Shown here piece after piece: positions 1 through 37,781 of a stretch of DNA of 64,000 nt. The first letter of the stretch is position 1; the number at the start of each line of letters is the position of its first letter. Source of the DNA: Escherichia coli (GTDB lineage: Bacteria > Pseudomonadota > Gammaproteobacteria > Enterobacterales > Enterobacteriaceae); assembly GCF_013315695.1 (NCBI RefSeq), contig NZ_CP054353.1. One strand, 5' to 3'. The translations under genes and the position numbers were made by a program. The notes below the pieces were generated by a model that made no database searches, had not been told where the DNA came from, and worked only from the letters and a program-made list of their open reading frames with translations.

Positions 1-228
1 CGCATAAATCAAACGCAGTGCAACATCAATATCGTCAAGCGGGCCGCTTTGGGCGAGTAACGGCTTCACTGCATATTCGACGATCTCTTCATCGTTATCG
101 ACAAACAGCGACGGCAGAAACTGGCGTATCCCCTGGAGCAAAATAGAATGCGCAGTATTCATAAATGAAAATAAATTGTCCTGTGCATCCAGTTGCTCAA
201 GCACATCATCTTCTGTCAGCGTCGCCAT
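1..228 (-). CDS. yggD: YggD/FumE-like protein, N-terminal part only (gene runs off the window start)
   Basis: Minus-strand translation from ATG at 228 reads MATLTEDDVLEQLDAQDNLFSF..., matching my recollection of YggD; 3' end lies outside the window. Confidence 0.6.
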   Translation of the reverse strand, partial: MATLTEDDVLEQLDAQDNLFSFMNTAHSILLQGIRQFLPSLFVDNDEEIVEYAVKPLLAQSGPLDDIDVALRLIYA

Positions 229-2503: not shown

Positions 2504-3892
2504 TCAGTGTTTATGTTCGGCGGTTAATTGATTAAATAAAGTGTCGAGTTTTGGATCGCCAATATAGTTATTAATCAATATCAGTGATTTATCCGTCACA
2601 CGTTTCACGCGCCCTTCCAGACTGGCATGAGTAACGACGATATCCGCATCCGCAGGCACGTTTTCTATCGCGTAATGTTTTACTTCAATTGGCAGCCCCG
2701 CTTTTTCCAGACGTTTACGGAAGGTGGTTGCGCCCATCGCGCTGGAGCCCATCCCCGCATCGCAAACAAAGGCGATACGCTTAACCCGGCTTAACGAGAA
2801 TGCACCCTCTTGTTTCATCGCCTTAACCGCATTGGCTGACTGAGCAAACTCATCTTCGTTCTCCGTTTCCACCGTTTTTTCCATCTTCAGTATCAGCGAA
2901 GTGATAGCAAAGGACACCAGGGTACCTACCGTAACACCAGCAATTGTCGCCAGGAATGAGCCTTTCGGCGTCAGCGCCAGGTAAGCAAAGATAGACCCCG
3001 GACTTGGGCCAGCCACCAGACCACCGTCCAGTAAGTTAAACATCCAGGTGCCAGACATACCGCCCGCAATCATGGCAATAATGGTCAGCGGCTTCATCAG
3101 CACATATGGGAAATACAGTTCGTGGATCCCACCGAGGAAGTGAATAATCATCGCACCAGGTGCAGAGCGCTTACTCATCCCTTTACCAAACAGAGTGAAT
3201 GCCAGCAACAGTCCTAAGCCAGGCCCTGGATTGGATGCCACCATAAAGAAGATGGATTTGCCGTTAACTGATGCCTGTTGCATTCCCAGCGGATAATAGA
3301 CGCCCTGATCGATCGCATTATTAAGGAAAAGCACTTTCGCCGGTTCATTGATGACTGACAGCAGAGGCAGATAACCCGCATGTACCAGCGCCTCAATACA
3401 CTCTTTGACGAAAGTATTGGCAATTAACACCGCCGGGCCGATCACTTCAAAACCCAGCAGACAAAGGAGCATCCCCGCGATACCTAATGAGAAGTTATTG
3501 ATAACCATCTCAAAACCGGCAGGTATGCGTTTTTCCAGTGCCTTATCGACATATTTTATGACCAGCCCACCTAACGGTCCCATAATCATTGAACCAAGGA
3601 ACATCGGGATTTCTGCGCCGACGATTACACCAATTGACCCTATTCCGCCCATGACTGCGCCGCGTTTACCGCCGACTAAATGGCCACCGGTAGAACCAAT
3701 CATCACGGGCAATAAATAGGTAATCATCGGGCCGACAATTTTGGCGAAATGTTCGTTAGGCAGCCAACCGGTGGGAATAAATAACGCTGTAATAAAACCC
3801 CAGGCAATAAAAGCACCAATATTGGGGATGACCATTGCAGTCAAAAAGCCCCCAAAAGCCTGGACCTTTGCACGAGCAGACTTGTTTTCCAT
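2504..3892 (-). CDS. cmtA: PTS mannitol-type EIICB component (cryptic)
   Basis: 462 aa ORF, polytopic N-terminal EIIC plus C-terminal EIIB-like domain (FVCDAGMGSS). Confidence 0.8.
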   Translation of the reverse strand: MENKSARAKVQAFGGFLTAMVIPNIGAFIAWGFITALFIPTGWLPNEHFAKIVGPMITYLLPVMIGSTGGHLVGGKRGAVMGGIGSIGVIVGAEIPMFLGSMIMGPLGGLVIKYVDKALEKRIPAGFEMVINNFSLGIAGMLLCLLGFEVIGPAVLIANTFVKECIEALVHAGYLPLLSVINEPAKVLFLNNAIDQGVYYPLGMQQASVNGKSIFFMVASNPGPGLGLLLAFTLFGKGMSKRSAPGAMIIHFLGGIHELYFPYVLMKPLTIIAMIAGGMSGTWMFNLLDGGLVAGPSPGSIFAYLALTPKGSFLATIAGVTVGTLVSFAITSLILKMEKTVETENEDEFAQSANAVKAMKQEGAFSLSRVKRIAFVCDAGMGSSAMGATTFRKRLEKAGLPIEVKHYAIENVPADADIVVTHASLEGRVKRVTDKSLILINNYIGDPKLDTLFNQLTAEHKH

Positions 3893-4243
3893 AATATTAT
3901 CCTGTAGAGGAGAGAGTAATTATCCGCGGCTGATAATGTCCGCTAATTGTTTTTCTGATGATGCTGTTAAGAGTTGTTCGAGTATTTCTTCTTCGCACAG
4001 TAATTCACTTAACGCCTGAATAGCGCCAATGTGCGAATCGGCATCGGCAGCAGAGAGTCCGATGAGTAATTTAATTGGTTCGTCATTCCCCTGAAAATAA
4101 ACACCTTGTTCAAGTAATGTCAAAGACATCCCGGTTTTAAGCGCCCCACATTCCGGTCGCGCATGAGGCATTGCCACGCCTGGTGCGAGAATATAATAAG
4201 GGCCATTGTTAATGGTGGAATCTTTAATTGCCTGAATGTAATT

Positions 4244-4252
4244 CTCGCTGAT
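4244..4252. repeat. 9 bp target-site duplication CTCGCTGAT, left copy of the IS1 insertion
   Basis: Identical 9-mer directly abuts both IS1 ends (4244-4252 and 5021-5029). Confidence 0.9.
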
Positions 4253-4307
4253 GGTGATGCTGCCAACTTACTGATTTAGTGTATGATGGTGTTTTTGAGG
4301 TGCTCCA

Positions 4308-4583
4308 GTGGCTTCTGTTTCTATCAGCTGTCCCTCCTGTTCAGCTACTGACGGGGTGGTGCGTAACGGCAAAAGCACCGCCGGACATCAGCGCTATCTC
4401 TGCTCTCACTGCCGTAAAACATGGCAACTGCAGTTCACTTACACCGCTTCTCAACCCGGTACGCACCAGAAAATCATTGATATGGCCATGAATGGCGTTG
4501 GATGCCGGGCAACAGCCCGCATTATGGGCGTTGGCCTCAACACGATTTTACGTCACTTAAAAAACTCAGGCCGCAGTCGGTAA
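4308..4583 (+). CDS. insA: IS1 InsA
   Basis: 91 aa [45 protein letters not shown]..., zinc-finger InsA recognised by sequence. Confidence 0.9.
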
Positions 4584-5005
4584 CCTCGCGCATACAGCCG
4601 GGCAGTGACGTCATCGTCTGCGCGGAAATGGACGAACAGTGGGGCTATGTCGGGGCTAAATCGCGCCAGCGCTGGCTGTTTTACGCGTATGACAGGCTCC
4701 GGAAGACGGTTGTTGCGCACGTATTCGGTGAACGCACTATGGCGACGCTGGGGCGTCTTATGAGCCTGCTGTCACCCTTTGACGTGGTGATATGGATGAC
4801 GGATGGCTGGCCGCTGTATGAATCCCGCCTGAAGGGAAAGCTGCACGTAATCAGCAAGCGATATACGCAGCGAATTGAGCGGCATAACCTGAATCTGAGG
4901 CAGCACCTGGCACGGCTGGGACGGAAGTCGCTGTCGTTCTCAAAATCGGTGGAGCTGCATGACAAAGTCATCGGGCATTATCTGAACATAAAACACTATC
5001 AATAA
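4502..5005 (+). CDS. insB: IS1 InsB (expressed as InsAB' fusion by -1 frameshift)
   Basis: 167 aa ORF overlapping insA in the -1 frame; matches IS1 InsB by sequence recall. Confidence 0.9.
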
Positions 5006-5020
5006 GTTGGAGTCATTACC

Positions 5021-5029
5021 CTCGCTGAT
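5021..5029. repeat. 9 bp target-site duplication CTCGCTGAT, right copy of the IS1 insertion
   Basis: Identical to 4244-4252. Confidence 0.9.
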
Positions 5030-5517
5030 ATAGTTTTTATCCAGCAATGATACCATCGAGAAATCGATAGCTTCCTGCCAATCTTTTGCTGAATGTATAA
5101 CTGAGATTGATGATTTTGGAAAATAATCACTAAGCCGCATAAATTATCCTTATTTTATTTTTAGGGTACAGTCCGGCGGTAAAAATAAAATACTCGTGCG
5201 GTTTAATGAAAGCAATTGGGTACGCGAGAAGAAAAACCCCATGAACAAAAATAATAAAACCTTAAATAACAACAACATGAAATTGATATTTTTAAAGTCA
5301 ACTTTGTATTTGTTACGTTTATCACAAAATCAACATTTTGATTGTTGTTGTATTTGTGATGCATATCGCCATTTATTTATTGAATGTCCGAAAACATACT
5401 TTTTTAAAGCAATGTTTTTTCGCTATACCCCTTTATAGATTCTGAATTCTCACCTGTCGGCTGTTTTCTCCTCATCTCATGTGACATATTCCCACACTTT
5501 ACTCAAGGAAGATTGTC

Positions 5518-6426
5518 ATGAAAGCACCTGTTTCATTAACCTCATTTCGCCCACAAAAATCTCTTGCTATCGCCATTGGCGTGCTTGCCGTGGTTGTGCT
5601 GCCATTTCTCTCGTATTACACCGTTAATGAAGGTGAACGCGGCATTTTGCTGCGCTACGGAAAAATCGTAAAAGTTGCCGAGCCGGGTCTGGGTTTTAAG
5701 ATCCCGTTTATGGAAAGCGTGGAGAAAATTTCCACGCGTAATCAGGCTGTGGTCTATCAGGGATTACAGGCCTACAGCCGCGACCAGCAACCGGCACAAA
5801 TGACAGTATCAGTCAGCTTCCACATTAAACCTTCAGAAGCAGGCGCGGTTTATACCACCTACAACACCATTGAAGCATTAAAAGATCGTCTGATTGTCCG
5901 TCAGTTGCCAACTCAACTGGAGAACGTTTTCGGCCAATATACCGCCATCAGCGCTGTACAGGATCGTACAAAACTGGTTCAGGATCTGCAAAATGCCATG
6001 CGCAAAGCCGTTGTTGGGCCAGTGGTAATTGACGGGGTCCAGATTGAAAATATTGATTTTTCTGACGCTTATGAAAAGTCGATTGAAGACCGAATGAAAG
6101 CAGAAGTCGCCATTGCCACGCGTAAGCAAAATCTGGAAACAGAGAAAATCCAGGCGCAAATAGCGGTAACTCAGGCCCAGGCAGAAGCAGACAGTAAACT
6201 GGCGGCAGCTAAAGCAGAAGCGGAAACTATTCGCGTAAGAGGCGCGGCAGAGGCTGAAACTATTCGTTTAAAAAGTGCGGCTGAAGCAGAAGCGATCCGC
6301 CTGCGCGGTGAAGCTCTGCGGGATAATCCCGGACTTGTAGCCCTCACCACTGCCGAACGTTGGGACGGTAAACTGCCCGATACCATGATCCCCGGCAGCA
6401 CAGTTCCGTTTATCTCTACTAAGTAA
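5518..6426 (+). CDS. SPFH/band-7 (prohibitin/flotillin-like) membrane protein with C-terminal Ala/Glu-rich repeat region
   Basis: 302 aa ORF; N-terminal TM segment, SPFH-like core, repeated AEAETIR / AEAEAIR motifs; preceded by an AT-rich region 5150-5500. Confidence 0.65.
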   Translation: MKAPVSLTSFRPQKSLAIAIGVLAVVVLPFLSYYTVNEGERGILLRYGKIVKVAEPGLGFKIPFMESVEKISTRNQAVVYQGLQAYSRDQQPAQMTVSVSFHIKPSEAGAVYTTYNTIEALKDRLIVRQLPTQLENVFGQYTAISAVQDRTKLVQDLQNAMRKAVVGPVVIDGVQIENIDFSDAYEKSIEDRMKAEVAIATRKQNLETEKIQAQIAVTQAQAEADSKLAAAKAEAETIRVRGAAEAETIRLKSAAEAEAIRLRGEALRDNPGLVALTTAERWDGKLPDTMIPGSTVPFISTK

Positions 6427-9498: not shown

Positions 9499-9553
9499 GT
9501 CAGACATACCGATCTACAACATAATTGTAGGTCGGTAACGCCTGAATCCCCGA

Positions 9554-10306
9554 TCAGAGTAGTGATTTCACTTTATTTAGCAAAACGGCTACATCATCCG
9601 GTCGGGTATATCCCGTATCAGGGTCTATAATCGAGCTGTAAACATGTGGCATAATGCGCGGCACCCCCGCCTCCAGACAAGTTTTCAGAATCACACTGAA
9701 GTTATCCAAATCAATCCCGCCAGTCGGCTCAATCAGCGTCATACCATTGCGCGCCGCCGTGGTCGCCAGCGCGTATAGCTCCGGAAGCGACCTCTCGCCG
9801 CCCATCGGAAAGAACTTCGCCGCGTGTGCGCCCATATCTAGCATCATTCGCACCGCCGTATCGCAGGAGACGCGGGCTGGCGTACCCTGGCTGCTGCTAA
9901 CGCCGGTGGAAATCAGCACTTCGCCCGGCGTCCCCGTCGGGCTAACCAGCGCGTTGACATGGGTCTGCTCACCGCCCGTAGCCGCAAGCGCGCCTGCCGC
10001 GAACCCACAACCGGTAAAGGTCTGGTTAACGTGTGCTGGATGAATCTGCGCCGCAATCATCGCAGCTTTGTAATACTGCGCCGGGTCACCCGCCCCCAGA
10101 CCTACTGAAATGGACGGTATTTCCGCCATCCAACGTTTAACTTCCTGGATCCCCTCATCCACCGAGGAGAACTGCGCGGAAAGCACGCCAATCACTGCGT
10201 GGCCTTCGGCGGCGTCAAAGATTTCACGGGCATTGGCGATATCTTTCGCCAGCACATTAATTGCCACACGATTACGATAGAAATTAATCTTTTGCATGAT
10301 CTGCAA
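9554..10306 (-). CDS. dgaF: KDPG-aldolase-like protein, last gene of a sigma-54-dependent PTS operon (DgaF-like)
   Basis: 250 aa ORF at the distal end of the operon; assignment rests on operon context and analogy to the Salmonella dga locus. Confidence 0.55.
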   Translation of the reverse strand: MQIMQKINFYRNRVAINVLAKDIANAREIFDAAEGHAVIGVLSAQFSSVDEGIQEVKRWMAEIPSISVGLGAGDPAQYYKAAMIAAQIHPAHVNQTFTGCGFAAGALAATGGEQTHVNALVSPTGTPGEVLISTGVSSSQGTPARVSCDTAVRMMLDMGAHAAKFFPMGGERSLPELYALATTAARNGMTLIEPTGGIDLDNFSVILKTCLEAGVPRIMPHVYSSIIDPDTGYTRPDDVAVLLNKVKSLL

Positions 10307-11393
10307 TCTCCTTCAGTCGCGCCACGATAAGTGCCATTTCCCCTTCCGCCACCGTACGCGGATCAAGGCTAAAAACGCCCTGGTGGAGGTTATACCGCCG
10401 TGCATAAATCGCGATATCGCCACCACGCAGTTGCGCTTCGACGACGCGAGCGTCAACTCCCAATTCCTGCGCATTTACTCGAATACGAATACGCCAGATT
10501 GCACGCCCGGCTTCATCCTGCTCAATATCAGCCGTTAACCCGTGAATCGCAGAAATCGCTTCAACCACTGGCTGGAGCTGTTCCGCGGTGATGACTGCCT
10601 GCCCCTGGTGATAATTCTCCAGCGCGTAAACCAGCCCAACCATGTTCTCCTTGCCGATTTTCATCGCCTTGGCAATGCCGTGATGCTGCGCTTTGCAGGC
10701 TGCAATCCAGATTTTTTTACCAGTGATAAACCCGGAGGTCGGCGCGTTAAAGGCTTTTGCGCCGCTGTAGACCACCATATCCGCTCCACTCACCACCCAG
10801 GCACGTAAATCCTCTTCGGCGGCGGCATCGACAATCAGCGGCAGGTTGTACATCTGCGCGACATGTGCGAAGTCCTCGATGTTCAACATTCCCTTCTGCA
10901 CGCAGTGATGCGACTTCACATACAGCAGCGCGGCGGTCGCGTCGGTAATGGCACTCTCCAGCTGCCAGAGAGCCGCCAGGTTACTTGAACCCACCTCCAC
11001 AACGCGCCCGCCACCTAAGCGGATCGCGCTGAGGATCGATGCGCCGTAATCGACGTTATGGCCGCGCAGCATCACCACTTCATTGGCCATGCCGGAGCTA
11101 TCCGGCATGAGCGCCACCCGGGCCTTGTCGCCGCGGGTAATGGCGGCGGCGACAGCGATGGCGATCCCTGCTGAGGCACAGGAGGTAACGTAGCTATCCT
11201 CCGCCCCGGTAAAGCGAGAGACCAGCTCGCCGGTTTTGTCCACCAGCTGGTCAATCTCCACGAAAGAGGATGCCGCGCGCGCGGTGGCCTGCATCACCTC
11301 CAGCGCGACGCTGGAGACGCCGAGAATCGTCATCTTGCCGCAGGCGTTAATCACCTGTTTCAGTCCCAGTTGTTGATAGATATTCTGCGTCAT
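10284..11393 (-). CDS. dgaE: SelA-like PLP-dependent enzyme (D-glucosaminate-6-phosphate ammonia-lyase-like, DgaE-like)
   Basis: 369 aa ORF in operon with mannose-family PTS genes; family assigned by recall. Confidence 0.55.
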   Translation of the reverse strand: MTQNIYQQLGLKQVINACGKMTILGVSSVALEVMQATARAASSFVEIDQLVDKTGELVSRFTGAEDSYVTSCASAGIAIAVAAAITRGDKARVALMPDSSGMANEVVMLRGHNVDYGASILSAIRLGGGRVVEVGSSNLAALWQLESAITDATAALLYVKSHHCVQKGMLNIEDFAHVAQMYNLPLIVDAAAEEDLRAWVVSGADMVVYSGAKAFNAPTSGFITGKKIWIAACKAQHHGIAKAMKIGKENMVGLVYALENYHQGQAVITAEQLQPVVEAISAIHGLTADIEQDEAGRAIWRIRIRVNAQELGVDARVVEAQLRGGDIAIYARRYNLHQGVFSLDPRTVAEGEMALIVARLKEIADHAKD

Positions 11394-11396
11394 GGC

Positions 11397-12254
11397 TTAC
11401 AGCACTCCCAGCAGCGAGCAGACCACGCTCAACGCCACAATCGACAGCAGAATCGTGGTGTAACGCGGACCCTTTTTCACCAAATAGAAGTAGATGGCGA
11501 ACACTGCCGCCAGCGGCAGCAGGCCGGGCGCGATGGAGTCCAGAATCTGCTGTACCACCACTTCAGAGCCTTTCAGTGCGCTAATTTTTAAAGGTGAGGT
11601 TATCTTGACAAAGCTCGCGGATAGCGCGCCCATCATGATAAGCCCCAGTACATTAGCGCCGTAGATAAGCTCCTTGATGCGCCCCCCCTGCAGCAGGCTG
11701 ATAATCGAATCGCGCCCCAGCGTATAGCCCTTGTGCACCATGCCGTAGCTGATTGCCAGCGTAATCGCCGGGTAGAGAATCAGCGGCAAAATACCGCCCA
11801 TCGCGCTGCCATTGGCGGCGAACGGGATAAAAATAGCAATCAACAGCGGCATCACGGCCGCCCAGATGATGGAGTCGCCCATTCCGGCCAGCGGCCCCAT
11901 CAGGCCGGTTTTAATCCCGGTGATAGAGGCATCGTTAATCGCCTCGCCGCGGGTCTTTTGCTCTTCCATGGCGATGGAGATCCCTTGGATCACCGCGCCA
12001 AACGTCTGCTCTGAGTTGAAGAAGTTCAGATGGCGTTTTAACGCCTCCACCTGCTCCTCCTTTTGCGGATAGAGCTTTTTAATAATCGGCGTCATCGAGG
12101 CGCAGAAAATCAGGCTCTGTAAACGCTCATATGAGCTGGAAACTTCCGCGCCAAGCCAGTAGATAAACCACGCTTTGGTGATATCCGCTTTGGTCAGCGC
12201 CCCGGACTCCCGCGCGCGCTCCACCAGTTCATGCTGCATTACGTCGCCGCTCAT
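11397..12254 (-). CDS. dgaD: PTS mannose-family EIID component
   Basis: 285 aa polytopic membrane protein following the EIIC gene. Confidence 0.7.
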   Translation of the reverse strand: MSGDVMQHELVERARESGALTKADITKAWFIYWLGAEVSSSYERLQSLIFCASMTPIIKKLYPQKEEQVEALKRHLNFFNSEQTFGAVIQGISIAMEEQKTRGEAINDASITGIKTGLMGPLAGMGDSIIWAAVMPLLIAIFIPFAANGSAMGGILPLILYPAITLAISYGMVHKGYTLGRDSIISLLQGGRIKELIYGANVLGLIMMGALSASFVKITSPLKISALKGSEVVVQQILDSIAPGLLPLAAVFAIYFYLVKKGPRYTTILLSIVALSVVCSLLGVL

Positions 12255-13003
12255 TATGCCGCTCCTTCATTTTTCGCCAGGCCTTTAATCAGGAAGGCCA
12301 CGCAGGTGCCGAAAATCGCCATCGCCATGATGTCCACCTTGAGGTACAGCACCGCGAAGAATCCGCCGATAAACCACGGCAGTAGGCTCTTTTTACCAAT
12401 CACCATAATGGTGATGGCGAAGCCCAGCGCCGGGAGAATCCCGCCCATGATTTCAAACGAGTGGGTCAGCCAGTGCGGCATCAGCTTGAGGAAACTTTCC
12501 ACTACGTTCTGGCCGAAGTAGTTGGCGGCGAACACCACTGGGAAACGTAGCACCAGCCCCAGCAGCGCCGGGTAGAGAAAGGCGCAGCGCATAATGGCTG
12601 ATATATTGGCCGTTTCCGCGTGTTTATCGGCCATATGCACCCAGGCCGCATTTAGCGTGCGACGCAACTGGTCGAGGAATACGCCGATAACGCCAAATGG
12701 AATCGCCAGTGCAATCGCCAGGTTCGGGTCCATATTGGCCTTAACGGCGATAGGAATGGCGATACAGGCCGCCAGCGCCGGGTCTGACGGCACATTGCCG
12801 CCTGGCGTTGAGGTCACACCCAGATATACCAACTGCATCCCCGCGCCGATAATCATCGCCGCAGGCATGTTGCCGAGCAGCAGGCCGACAAAGACTGCCA
12901 CCACCACTGGCTGTAACAGCATGGCGGAGAAGGTATAGCCAAGGCGCAACCGGGCAAACCAGTAATACAGCCCCATCAGGCTTGCAAAAAGTAAGGTATC
13001 CAT
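12254..13003 (-). CDS. dgaC: PTS mannose-family EIIC component
   Basis: 249 aa polytopic membrane protein. Confidence 0.7.
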   Translation of the reverse strand: MDTLLFASLMGLYYWFARLRLGYTFSAMLLQPVVVAVFVGLLLGNMPAAMIIGAGMQLVYLGVTSTPGGNVPSDPALAACIAIPIAVKANMDPNLAIALAIPFGVIGVFLDQLRRTLNAAWVHMADKHAETANISAIMRCAFLYPALLGLVLRFPVVFAANYFGQNVVESFLKLMPHWLTHSFEIMGGILPALGFAITIMVIGKKSLLPWFIGGFFAVLYLKVDIMAMAIFGTCVAFLIKGLAKNEGAA

Positions 13004-13028
13004 AATTTGTTATCCCATGTTCAGAGGG

Positions 13029-13514
13029 TCAGAATTTTTTCAGGATATCGTCCAGCGACTGCGGCTTATCTTCCGGGATGGTCTGGAAAACAGCCTTAAT
13101 GCCGCGACTTTTCAAATCGTTAAGAATGCCAACGTCTTTTTCATCCAGAGTTATGTTCTGGAACACCGCTTTACGGTTTGGCCCGCCGCCTAAGCCGCCA
13201 ACCTGAATATCAGCCACGTCAAAGCCCTGCTGCACCGCTTCCTGAATCGCCGCCAGCGACGGGAACAGCACCAGCACGTTGCCGTCGCCCAGCTGGTTCT
13301 CTTTCCACGCGGCCGCGAAGCTCTGGTTGCTGAAGCAGTCCACTTTGATATTCGGCGGCGCGGCCATCAGGTAGATATTTTTCATAAACGGATCGGCGTC
13401 CAGCTCGTCGCTGACCACCGCAATACGGTTGGCCTGGGATTGCCCCACCCACTTCGTCACCACCTGTCCGTGGATAAGACGGCTGTCAATGCGACATAAC
13501 ACGATGTTTGCCAT
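13029..13514 (-). CDS. dgaB: PTS mannose-family EIIB component
   Basis: 161 aa; N-terminal MANIVLCRIDSRLIHGQV is the EIIB-Man phosphorylation-site signature. Confidence 0.75.
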   Translation of the reverse strand: MANIVLCRIDSRLIHGQVVTKWVGQSQANRIAVVSDELDADPFMKNIYLMAAPPNIKVDCFSNQSFAAAWKENQLGDGNVLVLFPSLAAIQEAVQQGFDVADIQVGGLGGGPNRKAVFQNITLDEKDVGILNDLKSRGIKAVFQTIPEDKPQSLDDILKKF

Positions 13515-13524
13515 ACGATTTTCC

Positions 13525-13953
13525 TTACTGTTGTAATTGACGAATATGGGAGACGACGTCCAGGCAACTGTTGCGCCCAGCTTCCACCAGATCGGCCACG
13601 CAGGCGGTCAGTGGGCCATGTTCGCGCTTGTCCAGCGCCTCCAGCAGCAGCGAGGCATTAAGCCCGGAGATCACCGCCACCGGATAATCGGCGCTCAGCC
13701 GCGCCGCCACGTTAGAGGTGGTGCCGCCGATAAAATCGGTCACGATAAGAGAACCTTCTGGCATGGTTTTCACCACGGCTTCGACGCGCTGGTAAAACTC
13801 GCCCAGCGTATCGACAGGCATCAGCGCGATTTCCGTCACGCCTTCGATTTCGCCCATCACCATGCGCAGACTGTTGCAGAGCTGCAGCCCCCAGCCGCCG
13901 TGAGTTAGCAGCAGAATTTCAGGTAACGGATGAATAGGTACAGTTGTGGTCAA
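13525..13953 (-). CDS. dgaA: PTS mannose-family EIIA component
   Basis: 142 aa; apparent TTG start preceded by AGGAGG Shine-Dalgarno; first gene after the sigma-54 promoter. Confidence 0.7.
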   Translation of the reverse strand: MTTTVPIHPLPEILLLTHGGWGLQLCNSLRMVMGEIEGVTEIALMPVDTLGEFYQRVEAVVKTMPEGSLIVTDFIGGTTSNVAARLSADYPVAVISGLNASLLLEALDKREHGPLTACVADLVEAGRNSCLDVVSHIRQLQQ

Positions 13954-13991
13954 AATAGCCTCCTTTGCTCCAGTGTTTACATTTCATCAGG

Positions 13992-14007
13992 AGCAAAGGA
14001 CGTGCCA
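13992..14007 (-). promoter_or_regulatory. Sigma-54 (RpoN) -24/-12 promoter TGGCAC-N5-TTGCT driving the PTS operon
   Basis: Minus strand reads TGGCACGTCCTTTGCT, an exact match to the GG-N10-GC consensus, about 40 bp upstream of the dgaA start and just downstream of the sigma-54 activator gene. Confidence 0.8.
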
Positions 14008-14071
14008 GAATTTGTGTCACGCACAGAGGAAATGAGATTGGATGGGGCGTTAAGCCCCGTAAACCAGGGGA

Positions 14072-16912
14072 TCAGCTGTAGAGCAGTTCGTAGATATAAA
14101 AATATTCTGCGTCCGATAAACGGATAGCGTAAGCCTCTTCAATCGGCAAAAAGGAGGATTTGATGACGCTAAAGGCACGAGCGTCCAGATCAAGCCGGTT
14201 TTCTAGCGCCATCTGTAACGGTTTGCGGTTAATCACGATACGCTCGACCATGCAGCAGCAGTGGATCAGAAAACGTAGTGTCACCTGGCGGCTCGGTTTC
14301 AGGGAGAGCGTGTTGGTTAAGTGGTTCAGAACGTCCTCGATCTCTTTCAGAATTCGCTGCGGGTTGAGCACCGAAATATGGTTGATGATGCTCTCCATGG
14401 TCAGCGCGCTGATAAAACGCATGGCGCTGCGCTCCATCTCCAGTCGGCGCTCGCTGCTTGAGAGATCCGGCGTCAGCAGGCTGAGCACCAGCTCTGGCCC
14501 TTGCTCGGAAAACAGTTCCTCCAGCGAGATAAACGGTATATCCGGCAGTCCCGGCTGGAAGGTGCCGACGATCCCTGCCAGCCGTTCACTGGCATTAAGC
14601 GCCTGCTGAATACGCTCCAGGCTGCGCACCTCGTTATAGTCGAGAATCACCATACGCGTGTCCTGCGACATCAGCTCGCCAAAGCTCTCCTCCAGCACCT
14701 TTTTGATCTTTTCCGCCGTCCCCATTCCGGTTATACATGAGATAACCAGCACTTTGCCACCGCTCTCTTGCTGCGGCGTGCAGAGCCGACAAGGGATATT
14801 TTTACTCTGCATAAGCACAGCCAATTGCGATAGATCGCCAGTTTCGTAGCTTAAATCCAGCCCCACCTCCAGCAGGCTGGTCAGAGTGATATTTGGCAAC
14901 AACAGAACGTCAATCTGGAACAGCTTGCTGATGGTGCTGCCAAAATGGACCAGCGATCCGATATCCACCATCAGTATCAGCCGCTGCCAGCACCGGTCCT
15001 GAATCATCCGGGTCAGGGTTTCCAGGGTGTCATGCACCGACTGCTCAAATGGCATATCAATTGCGTAGAACAGATCGCGCTCCAGCACCCGATTCACATA
15101 TTGCGCCTGGCTCGTTGCGGTGGTCGCACCGTGAGCGATTAGAATCACGCCGCAATCCGGGCTGGTGTCGATGCGCTGGCGGTAGTGGCGACACTCTTTC
15201 AGGAACAGGCACAGCCAGACCACCTCCGTCGCCGGGCACTGAATATGCAACAACTCATTGATTTTGCGGCACAGAAGTGTCGCATTGTCATACTCATCTT
15301 TACAGCGATCCAGAATCAGGCTGGATGAATAGAGTTGAGGTATAAGCCCTCGCCGCACATAGCCAATCAGCGCAAGAAAGTGTTTACGTAACGGGTTCGC
15401 CAGGTTTTCTGGCAATGTAAATCCTAATACCTGCTCCACGTAACCGATCAGCAGCGTCACACGCTCCTCAATTTGATCGCCATAGCGCGGTGGATGCGCC
15501 GCACTATGGCGGCTATAAAGACCATATTCAAAAATCGAACTGAGTTTGTTTTTCAGGATAGCCAGCGTTTCTGCGGGCGGCACGTTACTGTTGCGCAGAT
15601 TGACATATTCACGAGTCAGGAAACTGTAAAACAGGTCGCTCTCTTCTATTTCCGCGCTGGTCGCCAACGAATTTTTTAACGCGGGCAACGTACGCGCATC
15701 CACGTTCAGACGATCTTTACCACCAAACAACGCATCGACCAGCAGACGCTGCTCTGGCGTGGTATTAAACGACATCTCCGCCAGTCGTTTATCTAACTCT
15801 AGCGTATCATTACGCTCGGTCATTCCCGACGCCCACGCCTGCGCGCACAAGAACTGAATATCACTTTTAAGCTGGCCGATATTGCCTTCCAGGGATTTAC
15901 TTAACAACCAATGCAAGAGCGTTTTATCAAGGCTTATGGTACGTTCAATTTTACGACTTTCACGCTGAAAGAAGCTTACAATCAATTCGAGCTGCTCCTC
16001 GACCGAACGCTGGCGAATACCCGGTAAGTCAATACATACCTGGATACGCCGCTGGAAGGTACGCAATAGTGCCGAGTTGACCGACTCTGTAGTGGCGCAA
16101 ATAAGGCGCACCGAAATTGAATATGTTGGCCCACTTGAACCAAGTGGGCGGTATTCACCTTTATCGAGAATAGAAAAGAGCTTCTCTTGTCCTTCGTACG
16201 GGAGGCGATGCACTTCATCCAGAAGTAAATAGCCTCCGTCAGCTTGCTCCACCAATCCCGTTTTATTCTCACTTGCCCCGGTAAATGCCCCCTTATGGTG
16301 ACCAAACAGATGTGAGGAAAGCAACTCCGGATTATGAGCATATTCGGCACAGTTAAAGTAAACCAACGGAGGTAGCGAACCTATGGTGTGCTTGCAAGCG
16401 AAGCAATGCATTAACTCAGCAAAGAATGTTTTGCCAACACCAGATGCCCCGGTTAACAGCACATGTAGTCCGTGGGGATAGAGCACCGCTGCGCGGCCTT
16501 TTTCTACCGCATCACGGAGACTACGGTCGTATCCGATAAGTCCGGAAAACGGATCATCATCTGTATATTTTTCTTTCTTTGGCAATAAACTAGCCACTGA
16601 ATGAACTATGCATTCGCAATCATCCAGTTTTCGATTAATGAGCAATTCTAGTGCGTGACGATGTAGAAAAAAAACAGGACGTCCCTGACTTTTTACCACC
16701 AGGCCTTCATTCCATAATTGATTAAGATCTTTACTAACCGAGTTGCGTGCCAGCCCAAGGTTAAAACCAATCGCCTCAGCAGTAAATGCTTTCTCCTTCG
16801 CTAAATCAGACAGTTCCAGCCCATACGTCAGCCGCTCCAGCTCCTTGTGAATAACATCAATCCGTCTCATTTCTTTACCGCTTAAAAAACAATAGTTGTT
16901 CAGAACATACAC
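14072..16912 (-). CDS. dgaR: Sigma-54-dependent transcriptional activator with PTS regulation domains (LevR/DgaR-like)
   Basis: 946 aa ORF; AAA+ sigma-54 interaction domain with Walker A (GASGVGKT) and GAFTGA motif; long C-terminal region consistent with PRD/EIIA-like domains. Confidence 0.8.
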   Translation of the reverse strand: MYVLNNYCFLSGKEMRRIDVIHKELERLTYGLELSDLAKEKAFTAEAIGFNLGLARNSVSKDLNQLWNEGLVVKSQGRPVFFLHRHALELLINRKLDDCECIVHSVASLLPKKEKYTDDDPFSGLIGYDRSLRDAVEKGRAAVLYPHGLHVLLTGASGVGKTFFAELMHCFACKHTIGSLPPLVYFNCAEYAHNPELLSSHLFGHHKGAFTGASENKTGLVEQADGGYLLLDEVHRLPYEGQEKLFSILDKGEYRPLGSSGPTYSISVRLICATTESVNSALLRTFQRRIQVCIDLPGIRQRSVEEQLELIVSFFQRESRKIERTISLDKTLLHWLLSKSLEGNIGQLKSDIQFLCAQAWASGMTERNDTLELDKRLAEMSFNTTPEQRLLVDALFGGKDRLNVDARTLPALKNSLATSAEIEESDLFYSFLTREYVNLRNSNVPPAETLAILKNKLSSIFEYGLYSRHSAAHPPRYGDQIEERVTLLIGYVEQVLGFTLPENLANPLRKHFLALIGYVRRGLIPQLYSSSLILDRCKDEYDNATLLCRKINELLHIQCPATEVVWLCLFLKECRHYRQRIDTSPDCGVILIAHGATTATSQAQYVNRVLERDLFYAIDMPFEQSVHDTLETLTRMIQDRCWQRLILMVDIGSLVHFGSTISKLFQIDVLLLPNITLTSLLEVGLDLSYETGDLSQLAVLMQSKNIPCRLCTPQQESGGKVLVISCITGMGTAEKIKKVLEESFGELMSQDTRMVILDYNEVRSLERIQQALNASERLAGIVGTFQPGLPDIPFISLEELFSEQGPELVLSLLTPDLSSSERRLEMERSAMRFISALTMESIINHISVLNPQRILKEIEDVLNHLTNTLSLKPSRQVTLRFLIHCCCMVERIVINRKPLQMALENRLDLDARAFSVIKSSFLPIEEAYAIRLSDAEYFYIYELLYS

Positions 16913-36773: not shown

Positions 36774-37781
36774 TTACTTAATCACTCCATTGCGCCGCAG
36801 TTGTTCGGTATCTTTTTTCCAGCGTTCATTAGCCTGGTTGATATCATCAATTTTCATCAAAATAGCGACTTTTTTACTGTTTATTTCTGAAACTTTCATC
36901 GTTAACGGATATTGCCCTTTTTCGAGCGTTATCCAGTCATCCTGCAATTTACGGCTAAGTTTTTGTGATTGCAGAAAAGTCTGTCGCCGTTGTTCGTTGA
37001 TATCGAAATCTCGCTTCTGCTGAATCGGCACTTCATAACACTCTGCACTCTGTTTATGACATGCCGCAATCGCCGGTTGATAAACCTCTTTGTCATATTT
37101 AACCGCGAAAGCCTCGCTATCGTTCTGTTTATTAAACTCATCACGCTGTTGGTGAATTTTTTTAAAGGCGTCTTCGCGGGTCATTTGCTTACCGTTTGCA
37201 TCTTTTCCCCAATATGCATCCGCTGCTTTCTGCGCCGCCACCATTTGCTTATCAAGCGCTTTCACTTCCTTTTCCAGCGCAGGAATCGAGTTCTTCTGGT
37301 TATTCAACGCAGACTCAAGCTGACTAAAGCGATAATTGAAATCTTCGCTATTCACGATCAGATATTTATTATTCGTTTTGATATCGTCGACTACCCGCCC
37401 ACGATCGCTGGCTGCCGCCTGAAAAGAGTAAAAGTTCACCGACCAGCCAGACGCGGGCGTTCCTTTACTGGTTAACATCGCCGAGAATTTTACCGGTTTA
37501 TCTTTCGTCCAGGTCTGTTCGAGCAGTTCGTAATCTGCCAACTGACCGACCCAGGTATAGAGATCGTCACTGGAAGAGACATCGCCTTCCGCTGACCAGG
37601 TGGCCTGATTACCCTTAGCATCAAGATTTTTTAAGCTGATAGCATCAAGCTTGAGAATGCCGTGATACTGCTTTTTGAATTGATCTTTTAAGATATTTTC
37701 AGTTGGCGGTTCGCCATCTGCCCAGACATTACCAGTCATCAACATAAGCAGCGCCGTGCCAACAATCCATTGCTTTTTCAC
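36774..37781 (-). CDS. yggM: DUF1202-family periplasmic protein YggM
   Basis: 335 aa with signal peptide; located upstream of ansB as in E. coli. Confidence 0.75.
   Translation of the reverse strand: MKKQWIVGTALLMLMTGNVWADGEPPTENILKDQFKKQYHGILKLDAISLKNLDAKGNQATWSAEGDVSSSDDLYTWVGQLADYELLEQTWTKDKPVKFSAMLTSKGTPASGWSVNFYSFQAAASDRGRVVDDIKTNNKYLIVNSEDFNYRFSQLESALNNQKNSIPALEKEVKALDKQMVAAQKAADAYWGKDANGKQMTREDAFKKIHQQRDEFNKQNDSEAFAVKYDKEVYQPAIAACHKQSAECYEVPIQQKRDFDINEQRRQTFLQSQKLSRKLQDDWITLEKGQYPLTMKVSEINSKKVAILMKIDDINQANERWKKDTEQLRRNGVIK

Follow-up and report, generated by a model that had tools for sequence, protein, structure and literature searches.

In the window, the 64,000-nucleotide stretch of Escherichia coli chromosome that was analysed here, with tkt, cmtBA and yggP, cmtB is a pseudogene, split at codons 38-40 by an IS1 element. 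The best explanation, which we hold with very little doubt, is a single simple transposition of IS1 into cmtB that was passed on within one E. coli clone. The cmtB::IS1 allele is an ordinary lineage-specific knockout, and it departs nowhere from textbook IS1 behaviour.

Structure of the IS1 insertion

An IS1A-type element of 768 bp occupies positions 4253-5020, on the plus strand, its transposase genes being opposite in strand to cmtB. The left terminal inverted repeat (IRL, 4253-4275, plus strand) matched GGTGATGCTGCCAACTTACTGAT exactly, and the right one (IRR, 4998-5020) matched GGTAATGACTCCAACTTATTGAT exactly on the minus strand. The two arms are identical at 18 of 23 positions, and both are canonical IS1 ends. 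The insA gene (4308-4583, plus strand) encodes 91 aa with a zinc ribbon and an HTH (PF03811, 76 bits; PF12759, 107 bits), and a motif scan placed the A6C signal (AAAAAAC) for the programmed -1 frameshift from insA to insB' at 4559-4565, on the same strand. After the frameshift, the InsAB' transposase (4308-5005, plus strand) has 232 aa and no internal stop. It covers the NF033558 transpos_IS1 profile from 1 to 199 out of 199 (245 bits for a cutoff of 100), and scored 261 bits against the Pfam domain PF03400, DDE_Tnp_IS1. No other IS1 copy is present in the 64-kb window. The element is 100% identical to IS1 copies of other E. coli genomes; by its sequence it is intact, and apparently functional.

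As the sequence-only reading had it, this 768 bp element lies between identical 9-mers. The sequence CTCGCTGAT directly abuts IS1 on the left (4244-4252) and on the right (5021-5029), and these are its only two occurrences in the whole 64 kb. Read on the minus strand, the duplicated bases are codons 38-40 of cmtB (Ile-Ser-Glu). The probability that two given 9-mers agree by chance is 4^-9 (about 4e-6). Target-site duplications (TSDs) of IS1 are 9 bp long in 78% of the events and 8 bp long in 22%, and the element prefers AT-rich DNA as a target (PMC10359306). The GC content around the insertion site is 31%, and a 9-bp duplication in such AT-rich surroundings is typical IS1 behaviour.

Identity of cmtB and fate of its two pieces

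The interrupted gene was reconstituted in silico by deleting positions 4253-5029 and joining 3920-4252 to 5030-5140, on the minus strand. The outcome agrees with the earlier claim that excision restores an EIIA-type frame of 147 aa: a 444-nt ORF was obtained, made of 147 codons and a stop. The 3920-5140 interval first assigned to the insertion runs exactly from the stop codon to the start codon of the cmtB gene that IS1 interrupts. The restored product matched Pfam PTS_EIIA_2 and the NCBIfam CmtB equivalog NF007358 (323.3 bits for a cutoff of 192, positions 1-147 of 147). Its residues 1-147 aligned from end to end with residues 4-150 of the K-12 CmtB structure, PDB 2OQ3, with 145 identities out of 147 (K9E and Q90P being the differences). 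The title of 2OQ3 is 'Mannitol-specific cryptic phosphotransferase enzyme IIA component', and the label 'cryptic' for the Cmt system is taken from such database and PDB names. Alignment with an uninterrupted allele, which had been proposed as a check, left the identification unchanged: CmtB of strain VR50 is one residue apart from the restored protein (M63 in VR50, V63 here), and V63 is present in other alleles. At the nucleotide level, codon 63 (4175-4177) is GTG (Val) in the window and in most alleles, and ATG (Met) in VR50 and DLI.6n.

In its present state the gene consists of two pieces, both on the minus strand. The 5' piece (5021-5140), delimited by the excision and by comparison with the empty site, contains codons 1-40, one TSD copy included. 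It is continued into IS1 as a chimeric ORF of 66 aa (4940-5140), in which CmtB residues 1-40 are followed by 26 residues from the right end of the element and a stop, without the His67 region. The 3' piece (3920-4252), from codon 38 to codon 147 and the stop, the other TSD copy included, keeps the conserved AMPHARPE region with His67, and is now devoid of promoter and start codon. In the annotations of AF3 and MSB1_4I, two genomes described below, it is a cmtB pseudogene 'missing N-terminus'. Reduced to a 40-codon stub and a 3' fragment that lacks a promoter, the gene can no longer yield a functional EIIA(Cmt). A mechanical ORF of 85 aa (3920-4177) begins at codon 63 and includes the His67 region; it is a putative ORF only.

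Distribution of the allele

Identical cmtB::IS1 junctions were searched for in 5,426 complete RefSeq E. coli genomes and found in only two of them, AF3 (NZ_OZ547117.1, from a blood culture in the UK) and MSB1_4I (NZ_LR898874.1, from a rectal swab in Australia). Site, orientation and TSD are the same as in the window. RefSeq annotates the element in both genomes as 'IS1-like element IS1A family transposase', with a CDS joined by 'programmed frameshift' and cmtB pseudogene fragments on either side, so that the exact allele is already known, public and annotated.

Across 3,501 nt of the locus, AF3 and MSB1_4I are each 1 nt away from the window. This single difference is a private SNP inside IS1, a T at window position 4929 in AF3 and a T at 4496 in MSB1_4I. 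Two other differences distinguish the isolates. In AF3, another IS1 lies right at the 3' end of cmtA (window position ~2504; 2036-2803 of the AF3 locus), with ATCAGTGTT as TSD. MSB1_4I has a nonsense codon at position 32 of fumE/yggD (G135A; window 133-135, 434-436 of its locus), where the window encodes Gln. The possibility that the window comes from the same genome as AF3 or MSB1_4I is ruled out by the extra IS1 of the former, the fumE stop of the latter and the IS1 SNPs. Likewise, the fumE pseudogene that could be suspected in the window from the MSB1_4I annotation was dismissed, the nonsense codon not being present there. The additional private cluster lesions of AF3 and MSB1_4I could reflect relaxed selection or coincidence.

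Over 49,919 bp the window differs from MSB1_4I by 8 dispersed SNPs, and the last 15.4 kb are identical. Judged on these comparisons, the window strain is a third member of the AF3/MSB1_4I clone. The insertion had been described as recent. This holds in evolutionary terms, since it is undecayed and restricted to one lineage, but it had happened before at least three isolates diverged. Junctions common to at least three distinguishable isolates, with 8 SNPs per ~50 kb between the window and MSB1_4I, therefore designate an inherited clone marker and not a brand-new event.

Two other regions of the window were noted. An integrase-bearing genomic island (48632-64000) lies downstream of tRNA-Phe (48632-48707). 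It contains a phosphoethanolamine-transferase gene interrupted by an ISEc22 element (IS66 family), degraded fragments of IS3 and other transposases, and fragments of PapG-domain genes, and is 100% identical to its MSB1_4I counterpart. According to the MSB1_4I annotation, the loiP-speB interval contains a D-glucosaminate utilisation cluster (~9550-16870), with dagR, a mannose-family PTS IIABCD, dgaE and dagF.

A simple transposition event

The mode of insertion was deduced from the empty site in VR50, a strain whose displayed identity to the window next to the locus is 100.0% over 24 kb. There cmtB is intact, as it is in the close relatives with a displayed identity of 100.0% over 24 kb, and a single CTCGCTGAT stands at the corresponding position. 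Both flanks of the insertion are colinear with this one uninterrupted gene: the left one has 2 mismatches over 1,253 nt, and the right one matches throughout its 1,480 nt. This empty site and its colinear flanks therefore exclude a rearrangement mediated by IS1 and show that the element simply transposed, duplicating 9 bp. In this scheme, one intact IS1A-type element transposed once into codons 38-40 of cmtB, with the usual duplication of 9 bp of target.

Two other origins were weighed against this scheme. IS1 can mark a rearrangement, either recombination between two copies or the remnant of a composite transposon, in which case the cmtB pieces would originally not have been adjacent. The lineage is rich in IS1, with at least 40 IS1 places in each of AF3 and MSB1_4I, and non-matching flanks are found at some IS1 copies of other genomes (table in PMC6963479). 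Here, however, the flanking 9-mers are identical, the excised ORF is full length, and the empty-site alignment refutes this origin, to which we give hardly any credence. An assembly artefact, the repeat having been misplaced into cmtB by the assembler, appears just as improbable: misassembly classically arises at IS elements, but the same junctions and the same TSD are present in two independent complete genomes, which come from different countries and each have their own SNP inside IS1 relative to the window. A single transposition followed by clonal inheritance thus remains by far the best reading.

Gene context and expected effect on the cmt cluster

The cryptic mannitol-like PTS cluster is ordered cmtB-cmtA-yggP-glpX/yggF, with cmtB, near tkt, as the gene that is transcribed first. 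Directly downstream of it, cmtA (2504-3892, minus strand), encoding an EIICB of 462 aa, is intact (NF011663, 591.8 bits; TIGR00851, 478.7 bits). It begins 27 nt past cmtB in the same transcriptional direction, and is followed by yggP and by the glpX paralogue. Whichever way it is oriented, an inserted IS1 exerts strong polarity, and transcription from the cmtB promoter would have to traverse 768 bp of IS1 in antisense. Given this classical polarity, the cmtB promoter probably no longer drives cmtA and the genes that follow it.

For a cryptic or dispensable system such as cmt, the loss of cmtB itself is probably near-neutral. A search of the literature on Cmt function returned no open-access paper. 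In EHEC O157:H7, growth in bovine digestive contents was reported to raise cmtB expression (PMC6199705), so that the Cmt system is perhaps not completely silent in nature.

Upstream of cmtB, between this gene and tkt, the lineage of the window has a gene of the prohibitin/SPFH (Band 7) family (5518-6426). It is missing from other compared genomes (for instance ZF34 and G5), in which tkt lies ~310 bp after cmtB. The region upstream of cmtB is therefore polymorphic.

Recurrent IS1 insertions in cmtB

The search for the window's junctions had also brought up IS1 copies elsewhere in the locus, and insertions in the opposite orientation were sought with a query carrying IS1 reversed. In total, 28 loci were mapped, the position of each insertion being given as the last base of its TSD, in nt of cmtB. 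Inside the 444-bp gene, IS1 has inserted independently at least 14 times, in both orientations and in at least 17 genomes, and all mapped copies are bordered by perfect TSDs of 8 or 9 bp. With the orientation in brackets, they are found at nt 33 in TUM9975 (-), 84 in MS 21-1 (+), 98 in isolate 131 (+), 100 in ZF34/ZF31 (+), 104 in LF3-1 (-), 120 in the clone of the window strain, AF3 and MSB1_4I (+), 138 in N54 (-), 146 in TUM1586 (-), 146 in RM14721 (-), 147 in 2017.17.01CC (+), 295 in SWYHX138 (-), 306 in HCP6S3_I2 (-), 319 in FXCREC043 (+) and 330 in 28Eco12 (+). The insertions form two clusters, at nt 76-147 and nt 287-330, and nt 146/147 was struck in three separate genomes by differing IS1 variants. 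Beyond the gene, IS1 was also found inserted in the region upstream of it, in cmtA and in yggP.

This recurrence raises the possibility that the insertion of the window is one case of a repeated inactivation of cmtB, either selected (adaptive loss) or targeted to the site (IS1 hot spot). At least 14 independent events fell within 444 bp, 10 of them at nt 76-147. Under a uniform model with roughly 64,000 chromosomal IS1 places, 5.7 genomes were expected for cmtB and 0.9 for nt 76-147, versus 17 and 11 observed, although the nt 76-147 interval was picked after the data were seen. The further lesions of the sister genomes, the IS1 at the 3' end of cmtA in AF3 and the fumE nonsense codon in MSB1_4I, go in the same direction. 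On the other side, control queries of the same design (553 nt, IS1, 480 nt) were run on two other genes. The yggM query (AT-rich, dispensable, 44% GC) matched 18 genomes at a coverage of at least 80%, plus many partially, against 20 genomes per orientation for the cmt query (39% GC in the flanks, 42% in the gene), and only 2 were matched by nupG, a GC-average functional gene (50% GC). No IHF consensus (WATCAANNNNTTR or WATCARNNNNTTR) was found in cmtB. A special hot-spot mechanism was therefore rejected: the enrichment over the uniform model is real, but it is matched by yggM, and a contrast exists only with nupG. Since yggM behaves like cmt and insertions in nupG are rare, the recurrence is accounted for by the known regional preference of IS1 for AT-rich DNA and by tolerance in dispensable DNA. 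Selected or targeted inactivation is thus an unlikely origin for the insertion studied here. The more general proposition, that the 5' third of cmtB (nt ~76-147) is a genuine regional hot spot for IS1 or that cmt loss is repeatedly selected in E. coli, is doubtful as well, if perhaps slightly less so; were it true, the insertion would be a convergent inactivation and not an accident. Less probable still, to the point of being very unlikely, is a regulatory role, by which an outward promoter, borne by IS1 or hybrid, would turn on cmtA and the genes downstream. Hybrid promoters can arise from IS elements, and one promoter-like match, within the cmtB 3' fragment on the minus strand (4123-4094), lies upstream of cmtA. 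This match is, however, native cmtB sequence and not IS1, and a consensus scan for promoters and terminators over 3800-5520 gave counts at the shuffle expectation (3 promoter-like sites found for a mean of 3.3). In addition, IS1 is classically polar, and an EIICB without EIIA(Cmt) would have no dedicated phosphoryl donor. The preferred reading remains that of one ordinary transposition event.

The yggM gene (36774-37781, DUF1202), which is a target of IS1 at least as often as cmtB, is intact in the window. In the closest relatives of the window strain (VR50, DLI.6n, N25 and others), an IS1 abuts yggM and the left flank is missing.

Discussion

The insertion shows that IS1 continues to turn genes of a dispensable PTS cluster into pseudogenes. 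Its junction provides a clean marker specific for the clone of the window strain, AF3 and MSB1_4I, of little value beyond strain typing. The many independent IS1 hits in cmtB and yggM, with almost none in nupG, illustrate known preferences of IS1 and reveal nothing new.

The situation resembles that of the classical polar IS1 insertions in gal and lac, in that IS1 sits in a promoter-proximal gene of an operon, and that loss of this gene and lower distal expression, in either orientation, are expected. Unlike gal and lac, the target is here a cryptic or dispensable PTS cluster, and no obvious phenotype is expected.

A closer precedent is the cmtB insertion of 28Eco12 (IS1R), already tabulated among IS1 copies (PMC6963479), which was the only entry found in the literature on cmtB and IS1. 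As in the window, IS1 transposed once into cmtB and left a perfect 9-bp TSD. The 28Eco12 insertion differs by its site, the TSD ending at ~nt 330 of cmtB (GCCAATTCG/CGAATTGGC), by its IS1B/IS1R variant and by the strain background.

With IS1 of the IS1A/IS1R type, as known from E. coli and Shigella, the copy in the window shares the length of 768 bp, the imperfect repeats of 23 bp, insA, the A6C -1 frameshift, InsAB' with its DDE_Tnp_IS1 domain, and the 9-bp TSD within AT-rich DNA (PMC10359306). The only difference is its new chromosomal position.
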